64,000 bases of DNA from an uncultured delta proteobacterium (GTDB lineage Bacteria > Desulfobacterota > Zymogenia > Zymogenales > Zymogenaceae): assembly GCA_963735595.1 (NCBI GenBank), contig CAVTLK010000002.1, forward strand, positions 448,001 through 512,000. The letters are read 5' to 3'. The notes beneath the pieces were generated by a model that made no database searches, was not told where the DNA came from, and saw nothing but the letters and a program-made list of their open reading frames with translations. Numbering within the stretch: position 1 is the stretch's first letter; each line of letters opens with the position of its first letter. This document shows positions 1-13,327 of the stretch, one piece after another. A program made the position numbers and the translations under genes.

Positions 1-253
1 ACGACCAGCCGGAGGCGATGGGGGAGGGATGCCGGATGAACTGTGCCCAGTTGGTCAGGATGAACAGGAGCTTTGCCCCGACCAGGGCCGACGGCAGCAT
101 CCAGAGGATGATATCGACACCCGTCCACGCCGAAAGGCCGTCGCGACGGGCCAGGACGAGGAAGAGGACCACGCCGGCAAGGTAACCCGCCGTTATGAAA
201 AAGCCGTACGACCAGACGATGTGGCCGTCGATGGTAAAGAGGATGGGATGCAT
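1..253 (-). CDS. lgt: Prolipoprotein diacylglyceryl transferase-like protein, N-terminal part (runs off the window)
   Basis: Manual translation from ATG 253: MHPILFTIDGHIVWSYGFFITAGYLAGVVLFLVLARRDGLSAWTGVDIILWMLPSALVGAKLLFILTNW. The MHPILF...YG...GA[RK]L pattern and hydrophobic helices match the Lgt N-terminus. Absent from the ORF track because there is no stop in the window. Confidence 0.72.
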   Translation of the reverse strand, partial: MHPILFTIDGHIVWSYGFFITAGYLAGVVLFLVLARRDGLSAWTGVDIILWMLPSALVGAKLLFILTNWAQFIRHPSPIASGWS

Positions 254-436
254 AACTAATAGCTGCTACCTGATATCGTACGGGATGACACTGGCAGGCA
301 AGAATCGCTATTGACTCGTGCAATTTCGAGGGTGGCACTGAGAAGCGAAGCTTGTCAGTGATCCGAACTATTCCCAACAGCGGGAACGAACCTTCCGGTT
401 GTACGAGGCACGCGATGGTACGGAGGATCGGGTGCA

Positions 437-2526
437 TTATGGCTTCTTGCCGGTTACCCGCGTTTTGCCCCCGGCGTGATTTGCACTGAGTGCCGACTTT
501 ACGGCCTTTGCGATCGATTCTACGTCGATACGGTCCATGCAGTGGTTGGGTCCCATGGGGCAGGGCGTTCCGTAGATGCCGCTCCTTGTTTCCGTCAGGC
601 ATCCGTCCGGGTTCTGGCAGATCCGGTGGCCGACGAGGGTTGTCTGGCCCGGCCAGCCGTAGGTGGCGGGGTCTGTCGCCCCCCAGAGGGTTACGGCGGG
701 CGTGCCGACCAGCCGGGCGATGTGGACAAAGAGGTTATCGGTCGTGACGATCAGGTCGAACCGGGCCGCCAGCCCGATTGCCTCCCTGACGGTGGTGACG
801 CCCAGGAGGCTGTAGGCCCCGCGGATATACCGGTCGCGCGCGGCGCCCGCCTGGGCGACGAAGATTCCCTCGGCGGAGAGGCGTTTGACCAGCTCTTCCC
901 ACTGGGCGATGACATGTCTTTGCGGGGCGAGAGCGACCAGGGGCAGATCAGGACGTTTTTATCGGAAAGGGGGATGCTGTTGATGAGCAGCTCGTCGATC
1001 GACCGGCTCAAACGGCACGAAGAGGCGTTCGGCGGCCGGCATCGGGACGCCGAGCATCTCGGCAAGAATCTTGAAGGGGCGGCCGTTCGGTCCGCCGAAG
1101 TCCGGGGTGATCCCAGTAGGCGGTCCCGACGACGGCCGATCCGGGCGGCGGGTTGCCGATCCGTTCGACGGCGGGGTGGCCCTTGAGGATCTCGCCGTAG
1201 GTGGTTCGGGTGACCAGAGAGAAACGCCGCCGCGGGTCCTGATCGACGGCGGCCTTCAGGACGCCCGAAAGGATGATCGTGTCACCGTAGCCGCCGAAGG
1301 GGCTGATCCAGAGGGGACGGTTCTTGGGCGGCGCCCTGAACGGGACGACCGTCGCTGGCCGGCGGGACGGGAGGCTCGGGGACGCTTCGGTCCGTGCGGT
1401 CCGGGGACGCCGCCGGGCCGTCCGGCTCGAAGCGGACGCCGGTGATCGGCTCGAAGTACTTCTCGATGAACCCCTTCTTGTAGGCGCACAGGGGCGATTT
1501 TCTCATCCAGTCGCCGGTCTCGGCGTAGCTGTCCAGCGGGCAGCCGCCGTGGCAGACAGTCCAGAGGCGGCACCCCTTGCACTCACCCTGTTCGAGGTGC
1601 AGCTGGCGGGCGCGATACATCTCCTTTTGGGGGTCTTTGAGGACGCGTGTCTATCGAATTTTCGTGGATGTGGCCGTAGTCCAGCAGGCCCCAGTCCGAC
1701 GAGCGGCCGCACTGAGAATACCGGCCGGCGGGTCCCACGGACATGTGGGTATCGGCGCACATCCCCGACTCGGCGCATTCCAGGCCGCCCTTTCTCTCGA
1801 TGATCGCCTCCACAAACGACATGAAGGGACGAATCCTCGGGAAGCGATCCCGGCGCTCCCACCAGACCGGAAAAATCGCCCCGAGGAACTCCACGAATTC
1901 TTCCGGGGTTATCGCAAGCTTGGCGACCTTGCGCTTGAAGGAGTAGATCGAGTTGAACTTGACGGAGCCGGTTTTGTTGAGGTTGGTCAGAAAGTAGAAG
2001 AGGTCAAGGGGGGCGTCCAGAGAGAGCTTCGTGACGACGTAGATCATCCCCCAATTGATGTCGTTTTCCTCCAGAAGGCCCAGCGCGTCCATGAAACGCC
2101 GGTTATAGGCCGCCGAGTCGATAGTGCTGCCCAGACCCCGGACGTCGGGGATCGGGTCGTAGCTCGTGCTGACGCCGTTGATGCCGAGCGTCCGAAAGAC
2201 CTCGATATATTCCGGCGACAGCAGGGTAATGTTGGTCTGGATATCGTGGGAGATGCGGTCCTTTCGTGCCGGGGCAGTGCCGTTGTTCGAATTCATGGGC
2301 CTTCAGGAAATAGTCGGGCCCCAGCAGCAGCGGCTCGCCGCCGTGCCAGATGATCTGGAACCGCTCGTCCGGGCGATCGGCGAGGTATTCATTGACCCGA
2401 ACAAAGAACCGCTCCAGGGTCTCCAGCGGCAGCCGTGACGCCCTTTTCGCGGTCTTTCCTGACCACGTCGCAGTAGGCGCAGTTGCCGTTGCACGCCTCG
2501 GTCGGTTTAAATATGACGGTGGTCAT
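437..2526 (-). CDS. Radical SAM/SPASM maturase (anSME-like) apparently fused to a C-terminal GT9 glycosyltransferase domain; several frameshifts
   Basis: ATG 2526 with SD AAGGAG. Motifs: MTTVIFKPTEACNGNCAYC (CxxxCxxC), IIWHGGEPLL, IQTN, SPASM CAESGMC..SQCGR..CKGCRLWTVCHGGCP. Then GT9 motifs PFGGYGDTIILSGVLKA and DLIVTTDNLFVHIARLVGTPAVTLWGATDP, and a Cys-rich end PCPMGPNHCM. Stop TAA at 437. Confidence 0.75.
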
Positions 2527-3390
2527 GTCGCTCCTTTCTCGGTTCATCGCGCCGTTTGTCGAGGTCATCCAGGAGCGCGATCATCTCGACGGAGAAGGCC
2601 GCGCATCCCGTCCTGTCCGTCCCGTTTCGATCGAATTTCCCCAGGCAGACCTTCCATCCCGGGCAGCGCGAGCAGGGGTGATATGCGAGAAACAGGCGCC
2701 GGCGCACGTCGATCCGCTCCCGGTACGTCTCGGAATCGATAACTGTCGTCCAGCCGCTCGATATCGTTCTCGATGAAGCTTTCGTCGAGAAGTTCCCGGC
2801 GCGAGAGGGCGATGCGGCCGTCCGGGTCCAGGTGGAGGAAGTCCTTGGGGTCGTCGAAGAAGACCGGGCCCCACTCGATCCATCCGTCTGACTGGTAACG
2901 CCCCGCAATGGTCGAAAAGGGCTCGATCGGGCCGTGGGGTACGGCTGTCGACCAGGGAATAAGTCATGAGGTCGGCCAAGCCTTCCCAATCGACGGGTCC
3001 CGCGATCCCCGAAGACCGCCGCACATCGGATGTTGACCGACGAAAGAATCCTGAGGGCGGTGAGATTCCCGGGATCGTCGGCCGAAAGGTAAATCATGGG
3101 GTTCAGATCCCGAACCGTTCGCAGCCGCCGGGACGAGGCCGCGGAACTGCGCCATCTTCGGGGCAAAGACGGCAAGCTTGATGCCCGGCCCAGGCGTCGT
3201 CGAAGGGGACTTCGTCCAGGGGGATGCGAGAATCCAGGATGACCATCGAAAGCCGGTTGGCCGATGACCTCACGCACTCGGCGGCCCTGACGACGTCTGA
3301 CGGCTCATCGACCCGTACCGCCAGGACACGCTCGGATAAGTCGGCGATCAGCGTCTCGCTAAACGGCAATACAAGGTTTGGAAAGCCCAC
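2507..3390 (-). CDS. Hypothetical rSAM-associated protein with a C-terminal SPASM-like Cys cluster; frameshifted
   Basis: Joined from ORFs 3103..3390, 2964..3155, 2581..3024 and 2507..3277. Ends HPCSRCPGWKVCLGKF...GCAAF. Overlaps both neighbouring rSAM genes. No CxxxCxxC seen. Confidence 0.6.
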
Positions 3391-4393
3391 GTTCTATCTC
3401 CTGGAGCCGAACCGGCGCCTCGCCGACAAAGCGGTTCATGACCTGGCAGGCCCCGCCGCCCGCACACCGGCCCTCTTCCCGATGGATACAACCGTCACAC
3501 TCTTCGTAAATCCCGGCGGTCTCGGAGCGGACGCGGTCGAAGAGCCCCTGGTAGAAGTCGTGTACTTCCTTCATCGAGTTGAACTCGAAGAGGGAGCCGC
3601 TTGTGAAATCCCGAGAGCGGAAAGCATGCATAGACGTTCAGATCGGGGGTTAGGTCGATGGCCGGCCCGCAGCCGAATTTGAATTTCGCCGACTGGCGCA
3701 TAAGCCAGCCGAGCTGTTCGTCGGTAAACCCGCAGAGCGGGAAACCGCAGTCCAGACCCCGGCTTGATATCGAACCGATCCAGCGCCGGCCGAAATGAAT
3801 AGAGGCGGTCGATAACCGTCCGCACGTCGTCGGGTTTAATGATAGACGCTCTCAACTCCCGGCATCGGCGAGGCCAGGCCCAGCCGGATATGCCGGTGCA
3901 TGCCGTATCGCGCAATCAGGTCAAAGAGGAACCCGATGTCAAAATCGGTTCGATAGATGTTGAAGCCCGGCGTGCACCACGGCCCCATGAGGGAAAGGAA
4001 CTTCGCGATGCGCGTGCCCTCCTGCTTGGGGGCCGGGGTCTGATCGGGATTATTGAGGTTTACGACGAAGCTCAGCCGCGCGGGCGGCACCGCCGACAGG
4101 TGATCGGCCAGCTCCCTGAGACGCGCATCGGCCATAATGCCGCTGGTAAACACCGTTACGTGGAACTTGCGCTCGATAAGGAAGAGCACCATATCGACGA
4201 ACTCCGGGTGGAGGGTCGGCTCGCCGCCGAGCAGCGAAAGGCGATCCTGATCGGACGCGGCCAGAAAATCGGCAAGGTAGATCAGGTTTTCCCAGTTGAC
4301 AATGTCGCCCGAGGGGGACCCCTCCATCTCCCGCTTGGCAAAGCAGTAGGGGCAGGAACGGACGCAGCGGGATGTCATCAGGAGGTTGGTCAC
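3359..4393 (-). CDS. Radical SAM protein with SPASM/twitch-like C-terminus; frameshifted
   Basis: TSRCVRSCPYCF, LLGGEPTLHP and VFTSG. Downstream frames give CGPAIDLTPDLNVYACFPL and ECDGCIHREEGRCAGGGAC. Confidence 0.8.
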
Positions 4394-4520
4394 GATTGCT
4401 CCTCGAACGGTAATAATGAGGAGAGGCGGTTATCGCATCGTACGGCGGACGTGGGCCCGAGTCTAACGGTCAAATCGCTCCACCGGAAAGGAGGGGTGAT
4501 ATACAAACAGCACTTCTTTT

Positions 4521-4883
4521 TTAGTTGTGCCAAATTATATTGCCGTAATTTTCGGAGTAATCGTAATAGTTCTGGTAATCGGAGTAGTTGTAATAATCGG
4601 AGTAGTTGTAATAATCAGAATAATTATAGTAGTATGCTGAATATTCGGTGTACATGTTTGAATAGTTGTAGTACGAATAGTTGTAATAGGAGTTACTGTA
4701 GCCGTTCACATACCCGCCGGTACACTCGTCCTGCCCCTGGGTAACGACTCCGGCGACGCCAAGGGTGCCGACCAGGGCGATCCCCTTGGCCATGCGCTTC
4801 ATCGCCTCCCGCCGGGTAAGCGTTTCCTTGTTTGTGGTGTCGATCTCTTGAGTTTTCTTCTTTGTCTTCTTTTCGTCGTTCAT
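4521..4883 (-). CDS. Tyr-rich repetitive RiPP-like precursor peptide A1 with twin-arginine leader
   Basis: SD AAGGAG. Leader LTRREAMKRMAKGIALVGTLGVAGVVTQGQDECTGG, then a 63-aa core with 25 Tyr and (YYNYSD)x3. Lies directly upstream of the rSAM genes. Confidence 0.8.
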   Translation of the reverse strand: MNDEKKTKKKTQEIDTTNKETLTRREAMKRMAKGIALVGTLGVAGVVTQGQDECTGGYVNGYSNSYYNYSYYNYSNMYTEYSAYYYNYSDYYNYSDYYNYSDYQNYYDYSENYGNIIWHN

Positions 4884-5041
4884 CGTCTTCTCCTTGCAGA
4901 GCCGTCTTATCGTAAAGAGGAAGGCATGACAGGTCGAGGGTGGTGAATACTCAACGTGTCGCTCCGCCGGGACTTATATTACATGTAAGCTTCTTATCTT
5001 CCTGACTCCTGCAAGCCCGTCTTGCATACCGTTACTGTCAT

Positions 5042-5070
5042 AGTTTATTACCAGTCATGATGTGAGTCAA
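5042..5070 (-). promoter_or_regulatory. Putative sigma70 promoter for precursor A1 and the rSAM operon
   Basis: TTGACT-N17-TAAACT on the minus strand. Confidence 0.45.
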
Positions 5071-5123
5071 GCAAATTGGTAAGTATCTTTAGTATAATAG
5101 TCGGAATTAAGGCCTGTCCCAGC

Positions 5124-5156
5124 AAAAAATATAAAGGGGCCCGTTCAGGCCCCTTT
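5124..5156 (-). terminator. Intrinsic terminator after precursor A2
   Basis: AAAGGGGCC-TGAACG-GGCCCCTTT hairpin followed by ATATTTTTT on the minus strand. Confidence 0.75.
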
Positions 5157-5177
5157 GGCTTGTCTATGTAACCCCGG

Positions 5178-5540
5178 TTACCAGGGGTGATAGTTGAAGT
5201 ACCCGCCGCCATGATTGTAATAATTGTAGTAGTCGCTGTAGTTGTAGTAGTCGCTGTACGTGTTGTAGTAATTATAGTACCCGTTGCTATAATTATAGTA
5301 CGCGTTCGAATAATCATAGTAGCCGGCATTGGAGTAGTTGTAGTAGCCCGGAGGGACCAGATTCACGTACCCGCCGGAGCATTCGTCCTGCCCCTGGGTA
5401 ACGACCCCGGCGACGCCGAGCGTGCCGACCAGGGCGATCCCCTTGGCCATGCGCTTCATCGCCTCGCGCCGGGAGAGTCTTTCGTCTTTCCTGACCTGGG
5501 CGGCCCCCGTTTCGTCTTTTTTCTTCTTCTTATCTTCCAT
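5178..5540 (-). CDS. Tyr-rich repetitive RiPP-like precursor peptide A2 with twin-arginine leader
   Basis: Likely start ATG 5540 (GGAGAAGACAATG, same context as A1), giving 120 aa. Same leader as A1; 63-aa core with 24 Tyr in YYN/YSN/YSD units. Confidence 0.8.
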   Translation of the reverse strand: MEDKKKKKDETGAAQVRKDERLSRREAMKRMAKGIALVGTLGVAGVVTQGQDECSGGYVNLVPPGYYNYSNAGYYDYSNAYYNYSNGYYNYYNTYSDYYNYSDYYNYYNHGGGYFNYHPW

Positions 5541-5678
5541 TGTCTTCTCCATTGATTCGGTTACCTACGAAATGTAGAGACGGCAATGTGAGAACCAGGG
5601 ATGCCGAAGTCTTACCGGGCAAGAATAATCGTTGCTGCCGTTGCTGCTTATCGACTTTACATGCTATCTCACGATATT

Positions 5679-5951: not shown

Positions 5952-6989
5952 ATGAAAAAGGGAGATAAATACGGCGCCCACCGGGTGATTGAGCCCAAGG
6001 GGGTGCTTCCCCAGGCGGCCGATAAAATCGATAACACCATGGAGATCTACGATAACGAGATCCTCGTTTCGGTCAAGACACTCAACGTTGATTCGGCCTC
6101 GTTCACGCAGATCGAAGAAGAGGCCGGTCACGATACGGGCAAGATCGGCCGGATCATCATGGACACCGTAACCCGCAGGGGCAAGCAGCACAACCCGGTC
6201 ACCGGGTCCGGGGGGATGTTCATGGGGACGATCGAACAGGTCGGCCCGGCGCTCAAAGGCACGGTTTCCATTAAGCCGGGGGATTTTATCGCGTCGCTGG
6301 TTTCCCTCTCGACGACACCGCTGGTTATCGAAAAGATCGTCGAGATCAGGCCGGACCGGGACCAGGTGGATATCATCGGCAAGGCGATCCTCTTTGAGAG
6401 CGGGATCTACGTCAAACTCCCCGAAGACATGCCGCAGTCGGTTTCGCTGGCGGTGCTTGATGTTGCCGGGGCCGCCGCCCAGACGGCGAAACTCGTCAAA
6501 CCGGGGGATACCGTATTCATCATCGGCGCCGGGGGTAAATCGGGGATGCTGTGCGCCTACGAGGCCCAGCGGCGGGCGGGCGTCACCGGCATGGTTATCG
6601 GCACCGGACACTCCGCCGAGAGCACCAGGCGGATCAGAGAACTCGGCTTTTGCGATCACGTTATCCAGGTGAACGCCACCAATCCACTGGAGGTGGAGCG
6701 CGAAGTAAGCGAACTAACCGGCGGACGGATGGCAGATGTCACCATCAATTGTGTCAATATCCCCAACACGGAGATGGGCTCCATCGTCGCCACGAAAAAC
6801 GACGGGCTTATCTATTTCTTCTCGATGGCGACGAGCTTTACCAAGGCCGCCCTGGGCGCGGAGGGTATCGGCTCGGACGCTACCATGATTATCGGCAACG
6901 GCTATACCAAGGGCCATGCCGAGATCTCTCTCAATATCCTGAGGGAATGCTCGGCGCTGAGAGAGATATTTATGAAGCTCTATGCGTGA
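5952..6989 (+). CDS. kdd: L-erythro-3,5-diaminohexanoate dehydrogenase
   Basis: MKKGDKYGAHRVIEPKGVLPQAA, LNVDSASFTQ, GKQHNPVTGSGGM, GAGGKSG; lies in kam gene context. Confidence 0.92.
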   Translation: MKKGDKYGAHRVIEPKGVLPQAADKIDNTMEIYDNEILVSVKTLNVDSASFTQIEEEAGHDTGKIGRIIMDTVTRRGKQHNPVTGSGGMFMGTIEQVGPALKGTVSIKPGDFIASLVSLSTTPLVIEKIVEIRPDRDQVDIIGKAILFESGIYVKLPEDMPQSVSLAVLDVAGAAAQTAKLVKPGDTVFIIGAGGKSGMLCAYEAQRRAGVTGMVIGTGHSAESTRRIRELGFCDHVIQVNATNPLEVEREVSELTGGRMADVTINCVNIPNTEMGSIVATKNDGLIYFFSMATSFTKAALGAEGIGSDATMIIGNGYTKGHAEISLNILRECSALREIFMKLYA

Positions 6990-8022
6990 GACGCTGCTCG
7001 ACCTGGTCGAGAAATCGGGGGCGCGGATAATCTCGGTCGTGGGTCTGGCAAAGAACACGGGCAAGACCACGACGCTTATCTACCTCGCCGGGCGCCTCGG
7101 CGCTGAGCCCGGGGTGCTGGCCCTGACCTCCACTGGGCGTGACGGCGAGGCAATCGACGAGATCACTCGTAGAGAAAAGCCGTCCGTCACCGTACAGGAG
7201 GGGACCCTGGCGACCGTCGGCCAGCGGTCACTGGACCAGGGGCCGGGCGTATCGGTGGTGCGCGATACGCCTTACGCAACCGCCACCGGCGGGATCGTGA
7301 TCGTTCGGGCCGAGAAAACCGCCCGGGTTGTCCTCGAAGGACCGGCGACGGCCACCGAGATGGGGCGGCTGGTGACCGACCTCATCGAGAAGGACGGCGC
7401 CCGATACGTTATCATAGACGGGTCGCTGGACCGGATCGCCGCCGCGGCCCCCGGCGTCTCTGACGGGGTGATCCTTGCGGTGGGGGCGATCCTGGGGCCC
7501 GATATGGAAACGGCGGTGCGAAAGACCCGGCACGCGGTGGACCTCTTTGTGACCGGGGAAGCGCCCGTGGCCGTACCCGGTGATATCGGCGTCTCCCGGC
7601 TCTGCGCGGTAAGCGCCGACGGGGCGGATTGGGCGATACGCGAGGGATCGGTAATCACCGACCTTTCCCCGGTCATGGGGATGCTGGAAAAGGGCGCCCG
7701 GTATCTCTATGTCTCTGGAGCGCTTACCGACGAGGTGCTGGAGGCGTTTACGGAGCGCGGCCTTTTCCCGGTCGTGATCGCGCAGGACGCAACACGGCTG
7801 TTTGCGTCGGGCCGGTCACTGGCCCGCTACACCGCGGGCGGCGGCGCCGTGAGGGTTAAACGGCGCATCAGGCTCATCGCGCTGACGGTCAATCCCCATA
7901 ACCCGGAGGGGATCGATTTTGACCCCGACGATTTCCTGGCGGCGATGAGAGCGGCGATACCGGACGTGCCGGTTTTTGATATTGTGCGGGAGGAAGCGCG
8001 TGGAATCCAAACTCGGCCTTGA
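6982..8022 (+). CDS. kamB: Lysine 5,6-aminomutase reactivase-type subunit
   Basis: P-loop-like SVVGLAKNTGKTTT, TSTGRDGE and IDGSLDR; located between kdd and kamD. Confidence 0.7.
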   Translation: MRETLLDLVEKSGARIISVVGLAKNTGKTTTLIYLAGRLGAEPGVLALTSTGRDGEAIDEITRREKPSVTVQEGTLATVGQRSLDQGPGVSVVRDTPYATATGGIVIVRAEKTARVVLEGPATATEMGRLVTDLIEKDGARYVIIDGSLDRIAAAAPGVSDGVILAVGAILGPDMETAVRKTRHAVDLFVTGEAPVAVPGDIGVSRLCAVSADGADWAIREGSVITDLSPVMGMLEKGARYLYVSGALTDEVLEAFTERGLFPVVIAQDATRLFASGRSLARYTAGGGAVRVKRRIRLIALTVNPHNPEGIDFDPDDFLAAMRAAIPDVPVFDIVREEARGIQTRP

Positions 8023-9538
8023 CAGGGCGATTATCGACGAATGCCGGGGCTTTGCGGAAAAGATCTCCGACGACCTCATGGGGTTTATCCGGTCTCACAC
8101 GACCGACAGCGTGGAGCGGGCGGTAACACGGCTCCTGGGGCTGGACGGGACCGACCGGATCGGCACCCCGTATCCGAACGTGCTGATGGACGCGGTCAAG
8201 CAGTCGCGCGGGCTCGGTGAGGGAGCGGCGGCGGCATCGGCCGACCTCATCGCGCACACAGGCGGGGCACTTATTGACGCCGTCAAAATGATCGCAGAAA
8301 AAAAGCTCAGACTTGCGGACGTTCCGGTGCTCGACAGAAACAGGCGGATTACGATTATTAGGCCCCTGGCCCAGGCGGGGCTTGCGAGGATCAAGGACCG
8401 TGTCGATGAGCGAAACCGCCTGAGGGCGGCCTATCCGATGAGCGGGCCCCCGCTCCTCTACGTGATTGTAGCCACCGGCAACATCCACGAGGACGTGACC
8501 CAGGCGGTCAGCGCCGTGAAGAACGGGGCCGACTGCATCGCCGTTATACGCTCAACGGCCCAGAGCCTTCTGGATTATGTCCCGTACGGCGCGACCACCG
8601 AGGGCTTCGGCGGCACCTACGCCACCCAGGAAAACTTCAGGATCATGCGCAGCGCACTGGACGAAGCGATGGTGCGGGAGGGCCGCTATATTAACCTCGT
8701 CAACTACGCCTCGGGCCTCTGCATGCCGGAGATCGCGGCTGCCGCGGCCTTCGAGCGGCTGGATATGCTGCTCAACGACTCGATGTACGGTATTATCTTT
8801 CGCAACATCAATACCTACCGCACGTTCGTCGACCAGTATTTTTCCCGGATGATCAATGCCAAGGCCGATATCATCATCAATACCGGCGAGGACAACTACC
8901 TGACCACGGCCGACGCCGTGGAGAAGGCCCATACGGTGCTGGCAAGCGATTTCCTCAACGAGTCGTTCGCGTATAAATCGGGGCTCCCGCCGCGCCTCAT
9001 GGGGCTGGGCCACGCCTTCGAGATTGACCCCTCGCTCGAGGGGGGCTTCCTGATGGAGCTCGCCCAGGCGCAGATGATCAGGGAGATCTTCCCCGAGGCC
9101 CCCATCAAGTATATGCCCCCCACCAAACACGTGACCGGGAACGTATTCCAGACGCACCTCGTGGACATGATGTTTAACGTCTGCTCCGTGATGACCGGCC
9201 AATCCATCCACCTGCTGGGCATGCTGACCGAGGCTATTCATACCCCGTTTGTCGGCGACCGGTACCTGTCCCTATCGGGGGCGCGCTACGCCAAGAACAA
9301 TATGCGCGGGATCGGCGACGAAATCACGTTTGCGCCGGACGGGTTCATCCGGAGGCGGGCGCGGGAGGTCCTCGGCAAGGCCCACGTAATGCTGGCCGAG
9401 ATCGTCGATATCGGGCTGGTGGAGGCGCTGGCCCGGGGGATGTTTGCTGATATCCACCGGGACCCCAAGGGGGGCAAGGGGATCGACGGCGTGGCCGAAA
9501 AGGGCGAGAACTATTACAACCCGTTTGCCGAGGCATGA
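8000..9538 (+). CDS. kamD: Lysine 5,6-aminomutase alpha subunit
   Basis: GTG 8000 after GGGAGG. ESKLGLD, YVIVATGNIHED, YGATTEGFGGTYATQENF, NYASGLCMPEIA. Confidence 0.92.
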   Translation: MESKLGLDRAIIDECRGFAEKISDDLMGFIRSHTTDSVERAVTRLLGLDGTDRIGTPYPNVLMDAVKQSRGLGEGAAAASADLIAHTGGALIDAVKMIAEKKLRLADVPVLDRNRRITIIRPLAQAGLARIKDRVDERNRLRAAYPMSGPPLLYVIVATGNIHEDVTQAVSAVKNGADCIAVIRSTAQSLLDYVPYGATTEGFGGTYATQENFRIMRSALDEAMVREGRYINLVNYASGLCMPEIAAAAAFERLDMLLNDSMYGIIFRNINTYRTFVDQYFSRMINAKADIIINTGEDNYLTTADAVEKAHTVLASDFLNESFAYKSGLPPRLMGLGHAFEIDPSLEGGFLMELAQAQMIREIFPEAPIKYMPPTKHVTGNVFQTHLVDMMFNVCSVMTGQSIHLLGMLTEAIHTPFVGDRYLSLSGARYAKNNMRGIGDEITFAPDGFIRRRAREVLGKAHVMLAEIVDIGLVEALARGMFADIHRDPKGGKGIDGVAEKGENYYNPFAEA

Positions 9539-9539
9539 A

Positions 9540-10298
9540 ATGACGGCGCAGGTAAAGAAAGGAATCGTAAAACCGTACGGCGACGCCATGGGGGACGGCG
9601 CCGTGCAGGTCTCGTTCACCCTTCCGGGCGTCTCCGGTGAGATAGCCGAGGAGGCCGCCCGCCGCCTGGCCGGCGAGATGGGTATAGACGACCCGTTCGT
9701 GAGTAACTGCGACGACATCGGTTCCGGGATGACCTTTATCGTCCTCTACGGGAGGCTCCGGCACTCGGTCGACATCACCCGGATCAAGGGGTTTGACCGG
9801 GCCGCCGAAAAGATACCGAACATGAAGGTCATCGACCATATGATCGAAGAGCGGCTGGGCCGCGCGATCACGGCGGTCGGGGCGTGCATCGAGAGCGACG
9901 CCCATACCGTCGGGATCGACGCTATCATGAACATGAAGGGCTATGCCGGGGATTACGGGCTGGAGCGGTATAAGAACTTCCGGGCGATCAACATGGGCGC
10001 CCAGGTAAGCGCCGAGGAGGTCGTGCGAGAGGCGGTCCGGGAAAAGGCCGACGCCATCCTCGTCTCCCAGGTGGTGACCCAGAAGGAGGTCCACGTCAGG
10101 AATCTCACCCGACTGGTGGACCTGCTGGAGGCCGAGCACGTGCGCGATCGCGTTATCCTCATCGTCGGGGGGCCGCGGATCACCCGGGAGCTTGCAAAGG
10201 AGCTCGGCTTTGACGGCGGATTCGGCCGGGGTACGCTGCCGTCGCACGTGGCCTGGTTTATCCTGAACAGGCTCATCGAAAAGGAGGGCAGGGCATGA
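9540..10298 (+). CDS. kamE: Lysine 5,6-aminomutase beta (cobalamin-binding) subunit
   Basis: VKPYGDAMGDGAVQVSFTLP; B12 motif DAHTVGIDAIMNMKGYAG. Confidence 0.92.
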   Translation: MTAQVKKGIVKPYGDAMGDGAVQVSFTLPGVSGEIAEEAARRLAGEMGIDDPFVSNCDDIGSGMTFIVLYGRLRHSVDITRIKGFDRAAEKIPNMKVIDHMIEERLGRAITAVGACIESDAHTVGIDAIMNMKGYAGDYGLERYKNFRAINMGAQVSAEEVVREAVREKADAILVSQVVTQKEVHVRNLTRLVDLLEAEHVRDRVILIVGGPRITRELAKELGFDGGFGRGTLPSHVAWFILNRLIEKEGRA

Positions 10299-11419
10299 AG
10301 ACAACCCCCAGCGCATTGGAGCGTTTTTACGTCCAGTGGGAGTTTGCGGTCGGAACCAATATCAGCGCCTCGTGCGGCGCCGAGACCACGACGGCGGAAC
10401 TCCTTGCGATGGCGGGGAAAGACGAGAGGGAGAAATACCTCTCGCTGGGGCTCGGGTACCGGGAGAACAAGGGCGACGCTCAGCTCAGGGATTTAATCGC
10501 CGCCGAGTACAAGAACCTTTCCGCCGATGATATACAGCTCGCCTGCGGGGGCTCGGAGGCCATCTTCCTGTTGATGCATACCGAGCTTAATCCGGGAGAC
10601 CGGATCATAGCCGAGGCGCCGCTCTACCAGACGCTCTTTCAGATAGCCGAGGATCACGACGTTGAAGTGGAGTGGCTCCCCCTCCTTGAATCGGAGGATT
10701 ACGTGCCGGACCCGGGACGCCTCGCCGACCTGCTCAAGAAAAAGCCGGCGCAGATGGTCGTCATCAATCATCCCCACAGCCCCACCGGATCGATCCTGAC
10801 CGAAGGGCTGCTTGCCGAGATCGTGGGGATCTGCGACCGATACGGTGCGCTCCTGGTCTCCGACGAGGTCTATTGGGGGGCCTTTTATGACGAGGCGGAC
10901 GTTGTCCCCCATGCTGCCGATCTCGCCGAAAACGTCATGACCATCGGCGACATGACCAAGCCCTACGGGCTGGGGGGGCTCAGGATCGGGTGGCTCGCCT
11001 CCCGGAGGAACGATATCCTGGAGGAGGCCTCGGCCCTCAAGGACTACACGACGATGTGTGCGGCGGGCCCGTCCGAGCACCTGGCGATACTGGCCCTCAC
11101 GCACAAAGAAGCGATCCTTGAACGCAACGTCGGGATTGCCGCCGAGAACATCGCGCTGTTCGACGATATCCTAAAGGACTCCGGTGGAAGGCTCTCCTGG
11201 GTGAGGCCGAGGGGCGGATACACGGGGTTTGTCTCGCTCAACGTGCCGGGGATGACAACGCGGGATCTCGCGCTGGGCCTCATCAAGGAAAAGGATGTCC
11301 TCATCCTGCCGGGTGACGTCTTCGGGGACGGCGGCAAGTTCCGGATCGGGGTGGGGACAAAGCGGGACGAGTTCGCCCGCGGAACCGTGGCCCTGGCGGA
11401 TTTCGTGTCGCGCCTGTAA
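10295..11419 (+). CDS. PLP-dependent aminotransferase class I/II
   Basis: INHPHSPTG, SDEVY, DMTKPYGLGGLRIGW. Confidence 0.85.
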   Translation: MKTTPSALERFYVQWEFAVGTNISASCGAETTTAELLAMAGKDEREKYLSLGLGYRENKGDAQLRDLIAAEYKNLSADDIQLACGGSEAIFLLMHTELNPGDRIIAEAPLYQTLFQIAEDHDVEVEWLPLLESEDYVPDPGRLADLLKKKPAQMVVINHPHSPTGSILTEGLLAEIVGICDRYGALLVSDEVYWGAFYDEADVVPHAADLAENVMTIGDMTKPYGLGGLRIGWLASRRNDILEEASALKDYTTMCAAGPSEHLAILALTHKEAILERNVGIAAENIALFDDILKDSGGRLSWVRPRGGYTGFVSLNVPGMTTRDLALGLIKEKDVLILPGDVFGDGGKFRIGVGTKRDEFARGTVALADFVSRL

Positions 11420-11507
11420 GGGCCGGCGCCCGAGGTGGCGCGACGCACTTTTTGACAGCACTTGCGCCGGCCGGCGGCGATGGTGTATGATGCATAGTCG
11501 GCAATAA

Positions 11508-11930
11508 ATGGATTTTCATATGACGGTTACGTATACGGGTATTGAATCGACGATCCGCCTCAGGATGAGCAGCGCCGACGCCCATTACGGCGGCGGGCTG
11601 GTTGACGGGGCCGGGATACTGGCGCTCTTCGGCGACGTGGCCACGGAGCTGCTTATCCGGCTCGACGGCGACGAGGGGCTCTTCCTGCGCTACGACGAGG
11701 TCGAGTTCATCGCCCCGGTATACGAGGGGGACTACATCGAGGCGACAGGCACGATAACGAAGGTCGGCGGCACCTCGCGGACGATTGAATTTTGCGCCCG
11801 CAAGGTGGTGGCCGCACGGCGGGACGTCGGCGCTTCGGCGGCCGATTTCCTGCCCGAGCCGGTGATCGTTACCCGGGCCAAGGGCGTCTGCGTTACTCCG
11901 AAAGGGCTTCAGCGGACGATAAAGACATAA
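11508..11930 (+). CDS. kal: 3-aminobutyryl-CoA ammonia-lyase (hotdog fold)
   Basis: [17 protein letters not shown]...[19 protein letters not shown]...[14 protein letters not shown]. Confidence 0.9.
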
Positions 11931-11945
11931 CGGGAGGTTTTACCG

Positions 11946-13327
11946 ATGGCCTACATGAACTATGAGCTGGTTTCAAAAAAGACCGAACGGATCACGACCA
12001 AGTTCCGTAAGATAGCGACCGATATCCCCGTGCCGGAGTCGATACCGATACTCAAGGAGCTGAGAAAATACGAGCCGATCTCCATGAGCGGCCAGCCTTT
12101 GGTCGTGTGGGATAACGCTGAGAACTTCACGGTGAGGGACCGCTGGGGCAATAAGTGGATCGACTTTTCATCCGGTGTGCTCGTGGCCAACTGCGGGCAC
12201 CTCCCGCCGGAGATGAAGCGGGCGCTGGTGGACCAGATCAACTCGGGCATGATCCACTCCTACTGCTTCCCCAACGAGCCGCGGGCACAGCTCGTCAAGA
12301 AGATGATCGAGATCGCCCCGAAAGGGATGAACAAGGTCTTTCTGCTGACCACCGGCGCCGAAGCCACGGAAAACGCCATCAAGCTGGCCAAGACGTGGGG
12401 AATGCGCACCGCGGGGCCGAACAAGAACGTGATCGTAACCTTTACCGGGTCTTTTCACGGCCGCACCCTCGGGTCGCAGCTGGCAGGCGGCATCCCGGCC
12501 CTGAAAGAGTGGATCGGCAGGCTCGACCCCACGTTTGTCAACGTCCCGTTCCCGGACGGGTATCGATTCGAGGATACGAGTTTTGACGTCTTCGAGAAGA
12601 GCCTCAAGGATCAGGGAATCAGCAAGGATCGGGTCTGCGGCGTGATGATGGAATCCTACCAGGGCGGCATCGCCGGGTTTTACCCCGAGCAGTACGTCAA
12701 AAAGCTGCGGAAATGGTGCGAAGGCGCCGGTGCGCTGTTGATCGACGACGAGGTGCAGGCAGGCTTCGGGAGATCGGGAAAGCTCTTTTCCATCGAACAC
12801 TACGGCGTCGTTCCCGATATCATCTGCTGCGGCAAGGGGATGAGCGGGGGGCTGCCGATATCGGCGGTCATCGGCAACTCGAAATTCATGGATATCTACG
12901 GGCCGGGGGAGATGACCTCAACCCACAGCGGCAACCCGCTGACCTGCCGGGCGGCGCTCACGAGCATCGAGCTGCTCCAGAAGAACAAGCTTGTCGAAAA
13001 CGCCGCAAAGATGGGCAAAATCCTTCATGACGAGCTCAATAAGCTTAAAGACGAGCATCCGATATCATCGGCCGGGTCCAGGGCAAGGGACTGCTGGCGG
13101 CGATGCTCTTTGTCAAGAAAGGGACCAAGGAGCCGGACCACCCGCTGGCTTTCGCCGTGGTGGAAAGGTGTATCCAGACGGGCGTTATGCTCTACGCGCC
13201 CCTGGGCCCGGGCGGCGGCACCGTAAAGGTCAACCCGCCGTTGACTATCACGCCGGAGCCGCTGATGGAGGGGATCTCGGTGATCGCCGAGGCGATCCGG
13301 GCGGCGCGAAAGGAATTGAAGAGGTAA
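11946..13327 (+). CDS. PLP-dependent aminotransferase class III; frameshift near 13070
   Basis: TGAEATENAIK, SFHGRT, DDEVQAGFGRSG, GKGMSGGLP, STHSGNP. C-terminus lies in ORF 13103..13327 (KVNPPLTI). Confidence 0.85.

Follow-up and report, generated by a model that had tools for sequence, protein, structure and literature searches.

What two small tyrosine-rich proteins might do beside a set of radical S-adenosylmethionine (rSAM) enzymes is the question raised by positions 437 to 5,552 of the stretch studied here, a 64,000-nucleotide piece (hereafter the window) of contig CAVTLK010000002.1 from an uncultured delta proteobacterium. A reading made from the sequence alone had described two putative precursors (A and B), followed on the same strand by a CxxxCxxC rSAM enzyme (rSAM1), a SPASM-like partner protein and a second rSAM/SPASM enzyme fused to a GT9 domain (rSAM2). 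These genes are indeed there, the enzymes in frameshifted pieces in the window and intact in relatives, but that inventory overlooked an Lgt paralogue at 253 and an orphan precursor elsewhere in the genome. The cassette is a real, widespread and apparently unnamed rSAM peptide-maturation family. Our overall model, which draws on analogy with known enzymes and to which we assign a probability of roughly 55%, is that serial three-residue cyclophanes would be formed on the Tyr-x-Asn/Asp motifs of the precursors, followed by export through the twin-arginine translocation (Tat) pathway and possibly by lipid anchoring through Lgt.

Co-occurrence of Tyr-rich precursors and cassette enzymes

A genome scan based on rSAM1 was carried out and the best 80 of 95 loci were kept, to which all 80-locus counts refer. 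These loci are not independent, five being kin of the window and several others near-copies. About 15 different bacterial phyla appear among their labels, besides one archaeal label. The order rSAM1-partner-rSAM2 was fixed, with the partner present in 77 loci, rSAM2 in 75, GT9 in 51 and Lgt in 4. A Tyr-bearing open reading frame with an RRxALKR leader was found in 71 of the 80, of which 64 were detected by a rule combining leader and Tyr content, formulated after the peptides had been inspected, and seven by eye (three, and four Elusimicrobiota peptides with the leader but less Tyr). The same rule found nothing in a control set of 77 loci around distant rSAM enzymes (742 kb) and, at 12% Tyr, matched only the two cassette genes in the 3.63-Mb genome to which the window belongs (G000; other genomes of its family are coded G002-G008). 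In nine loci no precursor was found; seven of them are truncated by a contig edge at the cassette, and L143 and L148, with no precursor in view, weigh against the model.

The sequence-only reading would have been contradicted if homologous rSAM enzymes usually lacked such peptides; most of the loci carry one. Because of this co-occurrence, the empty control loci and profile scores far below the cut-offs of known maturases (given below), a dedicated peptide-modification system outside the named families is supported, as had been proposed from the letters. Enzymes and peptides are thereby strongly linked, and judging from co-occurrence the Tyr-rich proteins are very probably the enzyme substrate. 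No RiPP (peptide made by the ribosome and modified after translation) recognition element (RRE), peptidase or ABC exporter was recurrent beside the cassette across the 80 loci, in agreement with the earlier remark that the locus shows no RRE/PqqD, C39 transporter or leader peptidase.

Within the window's taxonomic family, seven of nine further genomes had rSAM2 and eight had the precursor leader; of 51 genomes farther away, a single one gave a match to rSAM2, and only a weak one. The family cassette consists of 1-5 precursors, rSAM1, partner, rSAM2-GT9 and Lgt, in that order, its position is stable across the family, and one locus of this layout is labelled Candidatus Zymogenus sp. The partner family comprises 358 clusters at 50% identity. 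On viral contigs and plasmids only distant rSAM1 relatives (<=31% identity over full length) were found, without partner or precursor. Plasmid NZ_CP128402.1 (L158) has an rSAM1 relative (31%) in a three-rSAM cluster beside two larger proteins with RRDFL Tat-like leaders, which are not Tyr-rich. Locus L122 (5039-11835) carries a duplicated cassette with an rSAM1-like copy devoid of the N-terminal motif, and a second rSAM2 paralogue is present in six loci (L122, L089, L091-L093, L104).

Repeated Tyr-x-Asn/Asp motif in the precursor cores

The two precursors have 37 of 39 residues in common across L-x-RREAMKRMAK...QDECxGGYVN, and their cores of 63 residues each are identical at 17 of 63 positions and contain 24-25 Tyr (38-40%). 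Thus the shared segment and the divergent Tyr-rich cores had been described correctly, while the length of 120 residues given earlier to both holds for precursor A, annotated with 124, if it is counted from the second ATG. The equal core length, pointed out earlier, is a coincidence, since the part following the Cys spans 40-77 residues among 36 family homologues. Neither precursor matched Pfam, NCBIfam or PADLOC above cut-off, and 37 homologues of precursor B were found. The third, orphan precursor of the window's own genome lies on contig C5 at 553544-553987 (L018). Orphan family precursors apart from the enzyme cassette occur in G000, G002, G003 and G005 (L018, L030, L034, L154, L155), the two in G005 being without the Cys.

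In the two cores, Tyr stands at position -2 of Asn/Asp in 15 of 15 and 14 of 15 cases, against about 6 expected, and none of 5000 shuffles was as high. The cores thereby contain 15 and 14 non-overlapping Y-x-N/D triplets, which conform to the Omega1-X2-X3 motif of triceptides. For statistics across the family 69 cores were used, 4 of 73 being too short. Y-x-[N/D/S/R] was enriched at p<0.01 in 52 of the 69, including cores with Tyr spacing other than 3; since the i+2 preference is also seen in these, a simple period-3 structural repeat was rejected as the sole cause of the pattern. Two points here tell against our model: 17 of the 69 cores show no significant enrichment, and the residue set N/D/S/R at X3 was chosen post hoc from the pooled data. 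His makes up less than 1% of core residues. The window cores are neutral to acidic, unlike the Arg-rich, strongly basic cores with Y-x-R in precursors of G007 and G008 (L015:3952-4900, L016:10975-12000).

Triceptides are defined by an aromatic-to-C-beta link across three residues on Omega-x-X3 motifs (PMC11499958), and the accessible text of PMC11002830 gives C3(Tyr)-C-beta(Asp) as the link formed by YxdB and C3(Tyr)-C-beta(Arg) as that formed by YhhB. Because the cores carry Y-x-[N/D/S/R] and triceptide links are known on such motifs, cross-linking is proposed by analogy. By this model Tyr(i) would be linked by rSAM2 (or rSAM1) to the residue at i+2 through the C-beta of the latter, in the manner of YxdB on Tyr-x-Asp and of YhhB on Tyr-x-Arg, a step for which the odds appear slightly favourable, and the second rSAM enzyme would add another modification.

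Cassette enzymes fall below the cut-offs of named maturases

Protein-level analyses of the enzymes were carried out with intact copies from relatives. CxxxCxxC and SPASM-type Cys are present in both rSAM1 and rSAM2; the partner belongs to the rSAM/SPASM superfamily by its predicted fold only. In the NCBIfam scan that had been suggested earlier, no RiPP-maturase model reached its cut-off on the cassette enzymes. The best models for rSAM2 were DynA (NF041298, 134-153 bits, cut-off 450), anSME (TIGR03942, 124-152, cut-off 349) and DarE (NF038005, 105-140, cut-off 650), followed by triceptide synthases; the named 3-CyFE families (XyeB, GrrM, FxsB, AmcB, YhhB) gave 48-97 bits against cut-offs of 310-450, with no YxdB model among those listed. 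The alignment of rSAM2 showed WHGGEP, all SAM Cys and eight SPASM Cys to be conserved. Assignment of triceptide-like chemistry to rSAM2 is weakened by scores far below every triceptide-synthase cut-off and by its AuxI cysteines, which ChlB lacks in the alignment.

The earlier description of rSAM2 as anSME-like is right as to sequence but does not extend to function. The Asp that follows the third AuxI Cys is catalytic in anSME. At this site anSME has C-D and rSAM2 has C-G, and no sulfatase was found among the recurrent cassette neighbours in the 80 loci. With its score below the TIGR03942 cut-off as well, an anSME function was rejected, and rSAM2 is anSME-like in sequence only.

The predicted structure of rSAM1 has the full rSAM/SPASM fold (Z 19.7-21.2), matching SuiB (Z 21.2, root-mean-square deviation (rmsd) 3.3, 290 aligned), anSME (20.8) and also ChlB. 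The partner was placed by fold search only. For the greater part of its length, its model (pLDDT 95) matches ChlB, CteB, TigE and anSME with tied scores (Z 12.2-13.1, rmsd 4.2-4.6), that for ChlB being Z 13.1, rmsd 4.3 and 268 aligned. The ESM Atlas returned unnamed clusters. The partner had no match above cut-off in Pfam, NCBIfam or PADLOC, with weak SPASM-domain matches in 18 of 139 homologues; a sequence search of the PDB found nothing, and no significant similarity to rSAM1 or rSAM2 emerged from profile comparison. As it lacks CxxxCxxC and keeps four C-terminal Cys, the partner probably derives from an rSAM enzyme without being catalytic itself, and would bind a single auxiliary cluster. 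It could act as a scaffold or leader binder, replacing an RRE. The GT9 domain (PF01075) is fused, separate or absent across the loci and is therefore regarded as accessory; on balance it would add a sugar.

Other radical chemistry on the same exported substrate, namely Tyr-Tyr biaryl or ether links, darobactin/dynobactin-like beta-oxidation or ether formation, or epimerisation, with GT9 glycosylating the product, survives best among the alternatives, unlikely as we hold it to be. It draws on DynA as top model, an enzyme which in the accessible descriptions uses Tyr C-beta and non-triceptide spacing, on the strong enrichment of Tyr-Tyr lag 3 in the pooled cores (1242 against 884), and on the presence of two active rSAM enzymes, which imply two reactions. 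The preference for small polar residues or Arg at i+2, however, holds in cores not of period 3 and is a better fit to Omega-x-X3, and we retain three-residue cross-linking as the preferred chemistry.

Proposed export and anchoring of the product

Seventy of 75 leaders, and both window peptides, carry the RR pair, which precedes a hydrophobic stretch. A tatC gene adjoins 5 of the 80 cassettes, and in four of these tatA comes immediately behind the precursor(s); tatC is also present in G000, away from the cassette, and in 9 of 10 family genomes. In L131 (12206-13912), and probably in L119 (12092-13726), the genes precursor-tatA-tatC are followed by one in which a TatB-like N-terminus (TIGR01410, E 1.5e-4 in L131) is fused to a radical-SAM domain. 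Judging from the tatA-tatC adjacency in some loci and from lipobox or signal-peptidase-like ends, the leader likely behaves like a Tat signal, which would explain why transporter and peptidase are missing from the cassette. Tat suits a chain that must be completed in the cytoplasm. Export by Tat is likely, and we consider it highly probable that the finished chain takes this route. A few features argue against it. The Tat consensus has Phe where this leader has Ala, five of the 75 leaders have KK, KR or RK, and no curated Tat-signal model in NCBIfam or Pfam matched the leader at E<=0.1.

Leader ends (n=73) fell into 17 x-x-[GAS]-C (plus one LEGC), 10 with an acidic Cys box, 40 without Cys and 6 other cases. 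The acidic box QDEC is present in the window precursors and in 31 of 36 family homologues. It was found only in the window's family, which also has the cassette Lgt, encoded in the window from 253 onward and part of the cassette in this family. That Lgt is the third paralogue in most family genomes, and its branch splits off from the ileS-lspA-lgt operon copy. In G004, which has no rSAM2 match, two CxxxC-repeat peptides directly precede an Lgt of the cassette-Lgt clade (L063, G004:C277, 561-2099); one is complete, with a canonical SRRKFLK leader and a TIGR04117 match at E 2e-6. As the clade is thus tied twice to repeat peptides with Tat leaders, a dedicated role is favoured for it. On this model the Lgt paralogue would place diacylglycerol on the QDEC cysteine, a proposal we rate at just under even odds. 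It has to be set against the 40 leaders without Cys, against QDEC not being a canonical lipobox (signal peptidase I might cleave at T-Q-G), and against the absence from the cassette Lgt of the His of the E. coli HGG motif, which the lspA-linked copy lacks too; moreover, acidic box and Lgt count as one event because both are confined to one family.

Three distant Tyr-rich precursors are fusion proteins, two with a Peptidase_S74 chaperone and one with an Lcl_C domain (L123:11890-12669, L136:8595-9353, L151:6603-7586), a hint of surface fibres. The product would be a rigid aromatic polypeptide of the envelope or surface rather than a small diffusible antibiotic. A classical RiPP pathway, in which the leader is an enzyme-recognition helix only and cleavage of the core yields short, diffusible antibiotics of cyclophane type, could account for a leader conservation (37/39) unusual for a signal peptide and for the weak similarity of the leader to the TIGR04117 RiPP leader (E 0.024-0.09). 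We regard it as improbable, since no peptidase or ABC exporter recurs in the 80 loci, and since tatA-tatC adjacency, the lipobox ends and the three S74/Lcl_C fusions point to intact exported proteins. The fullest version of the preferred model, with Tat-exported poly-cyclophane rods across bacteria, carrying 10-30 Tyr cross-links per chain made by two rSAM enzymes and a dead partner, glycosylated and anchored by a private Lgt through an acidic lipobox, is doubtful as a whole. Were it true, such rods would represent a novel type of cell-surface fibre, hardened by enzymes, and would be the first product to combine the rSAM, Tat and lipoprotein pathways.

Frameshifts in the window copy

Aligned with a public contig that covers 1871-4392, the window shows ten extra bases, each a single +1 insertion, and about four further breaks lie within 437-1871. 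The intact proteins of relatives measure 343-345 (rSAM1), 286-297 (partner) and 692-700 residues (rSAM2-GT9). We checked whether the copy in the window genome could be a decaying pseudogene cluster, the family being real elsewhere. At least 14 frameshifts and a 159-bp insert inside about 5 kb, next to intact lysine-fermentation genes, would suit decay. Yet every one of the ten breaks at 1871-4392 is a +1 insertion. Between rSAM1 and its G003 orthologue 38 codons differ synonymously and 1 non-synonymously, and new stops were absent from all comparisons. An unrelated fatty-acid gene downstream of the cassette is also broken, and G002 and G003 are broken too, in different patches. Decay is hence improbable, and the frameshifts look like consensus errors. 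In G002 (L012:7150-9999), rSAM2-GT9 continues in frame into Lgt (949 residues), either a real fusion or a one-base error.

Relation to known systems

The cassette appears most like the triceptide pathway in chemistry, HXS in layout and DAG-RiPPs in anchoring, and by these comparisons belongs to none of them. Triceptide systems with their synthases (YxdB, YhhB, ChlB, XncB, OscB, MscB) share with the cassette repeated Omega-x-X3 motifs with Asn, Asp, Arg or Ser at X3 and an anSME-related rSAM/SPASM enzyme with HGGEP, and in structure ChlB ranks among the top matches for both the partner and rSAM1. The cassette scores at a quarter or less of their family cut-offs, however, and has two rSAM enzymes, a cluster-less partner and 14-15 motifs per core; in place of their Gly-Gly leader, protease and exporter it has a Tat-like leader, GT9 and Lgt. 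DynA and DarE maturases give the best-scoring models for rSAM2, which remain below the cut-offs, but the precursors are devoid of the Trp-based cores of dynobactin and darobactin and the gene context does not match. According to the accessible text of PMC10288494, DarE is closest to anSME in sequence yet makes cyclophanes.

DAG-RiPPs, as far as the accessible text of PMC13056109 describes them, also send a modified peptide with signal peptide and N-terminal Cys into the lipoprotein pathway; they use MNIO enzymes, canonical lipoboxes and the endogenous pathway, whereas the cassette has a QDEC box and a private Lgt. The words 'radical', 'rSAM', 'twin' and 'Tat' are absent from the main text of that paper. 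Membership of the CXXX-repeat rSAM targets (TIGR04117) was rejected in spite of the leader similarity and of such peptides preceding the cassette-Lgt clade in G004, as the cores have no Cys repeats and the score is 13-15 against a cut-off of 50. Spliceotides (PlpXY) have an Xaa-Tyr-Gly motif and an RRE partner in the accessible text of PMC11002830; with one Tyr-Gly in the two cores and no recurrent RRE-like neighbour, this assignment was also rejected.

Like the cassette, HXS combines two rSAM enzymes with a partner, and the repeat protein that they mature is exported and has an aromatic-x-Ser motif (accessible text of PMC13128918), but its motif is His-x-Ser and it has HxsD and a peptidoglycan-binding domain, whereas the cassette has Tyr-x-X and neither of these; the HxsB model gave 39-64 bits (cut-off 370) and HxsC 19 (cut-off 268). 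The parallel architecture could suggest a similar anti-phage role, with an rSAM-matured repeat protein in the envelope and compatible with our preferred chemistry, but this is the least probable reading, as the cassette proteins do not belong to HxsB, HxsC or HxsA, the only PADLOC matches are N-terminal ones of viperin-like rSAM type, the window cores are not DNA-binding-like in charge, and the locus position is stable in the family.

No description of the cassette was found in the literature, supplements and subscription papers lying outside the search, and triceptide or rSAM network papers, such as Sugiyama 2022, could list the family unnamed; a term search of the accessible text of PMC10352776, PMC9062424, PMC10288494, PMC8939145 and bioRxiv 2024.12.16.628070 also found none. 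The cassette thus offers a widespread unnamed rSAM family with an unambiguous candidate substrate, and is directly testable. If the preferred model is true, cyclophane chemistry would reach beyond short antibiotics and include long exported proteins, enzymes for the cross-linking or glycosylation of Tyr repeats would become available, cluster-less rSAM partners would gain a defined role, and an Lgt paralogue would be dedicated to modified peptides.

Features of the window and neighbouring genes

Table 1. Cassette features in the window (positions count from the first letter of the window).
Feature	Position	Strand	Remarks
Precursor A, 124 aa	5178..5552	-	Leader with RRxAMKR, then a hydrophobic stretch and the QDEC Cys box; 15 Y-x-N/D triplets in the 63-aa core
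Precursor B, 120 aa	4521..4883	-	Leader as in precursor A, 63-aa core with 14 Y-x-N/D triplets
rSAM1 (~343 aa in relatives)	3359..4393	-	CxxxCxxC, GGEP, SPASM-type Cys; three +1 breaks near 3841, 3755 and 3597
Partner protein (~290 aa)	2507..3390	-	Predicted rSAM/SPASM fold, without CxxxCxxC; C-terminal C-x2-C-x5-C...C; five +1 breaks
rSAM2-SPASM fused to GT9 domain (~700 aa in relatives)	437..2526	-	WHGGEP, eight SPASM Cys; several +1 breaks
Insert of ~159 bp	254..412 (duplication region 229-437)	no strand	Flanked by imperfect 25-bp copies of the lgt start, one on either side
Lgt paralogue, 5' part	1..253	-	Runs past the window to C2:447533; one break

The 159-bp insert (Table 1) is absent from G002, G003 and the public contigs, has short matches for part of its length elsewhere in the genome, and is either a real insertion or an assembly artefact. 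A convergent pilin-like gene (weak PilA match) follows the cassette in all family members examined, e.g. L014:13439-13960. On the plus strand, window positions 5952-13226 are occupied by an ordinary lysine-fermentation operon, in which 3,5-diaminohexanoate dehydrogenase and KamB were above NCBIfam cut-offs and lysine 5,6-aminomutase-like subunits and aminotransferases were recognised by appearance.

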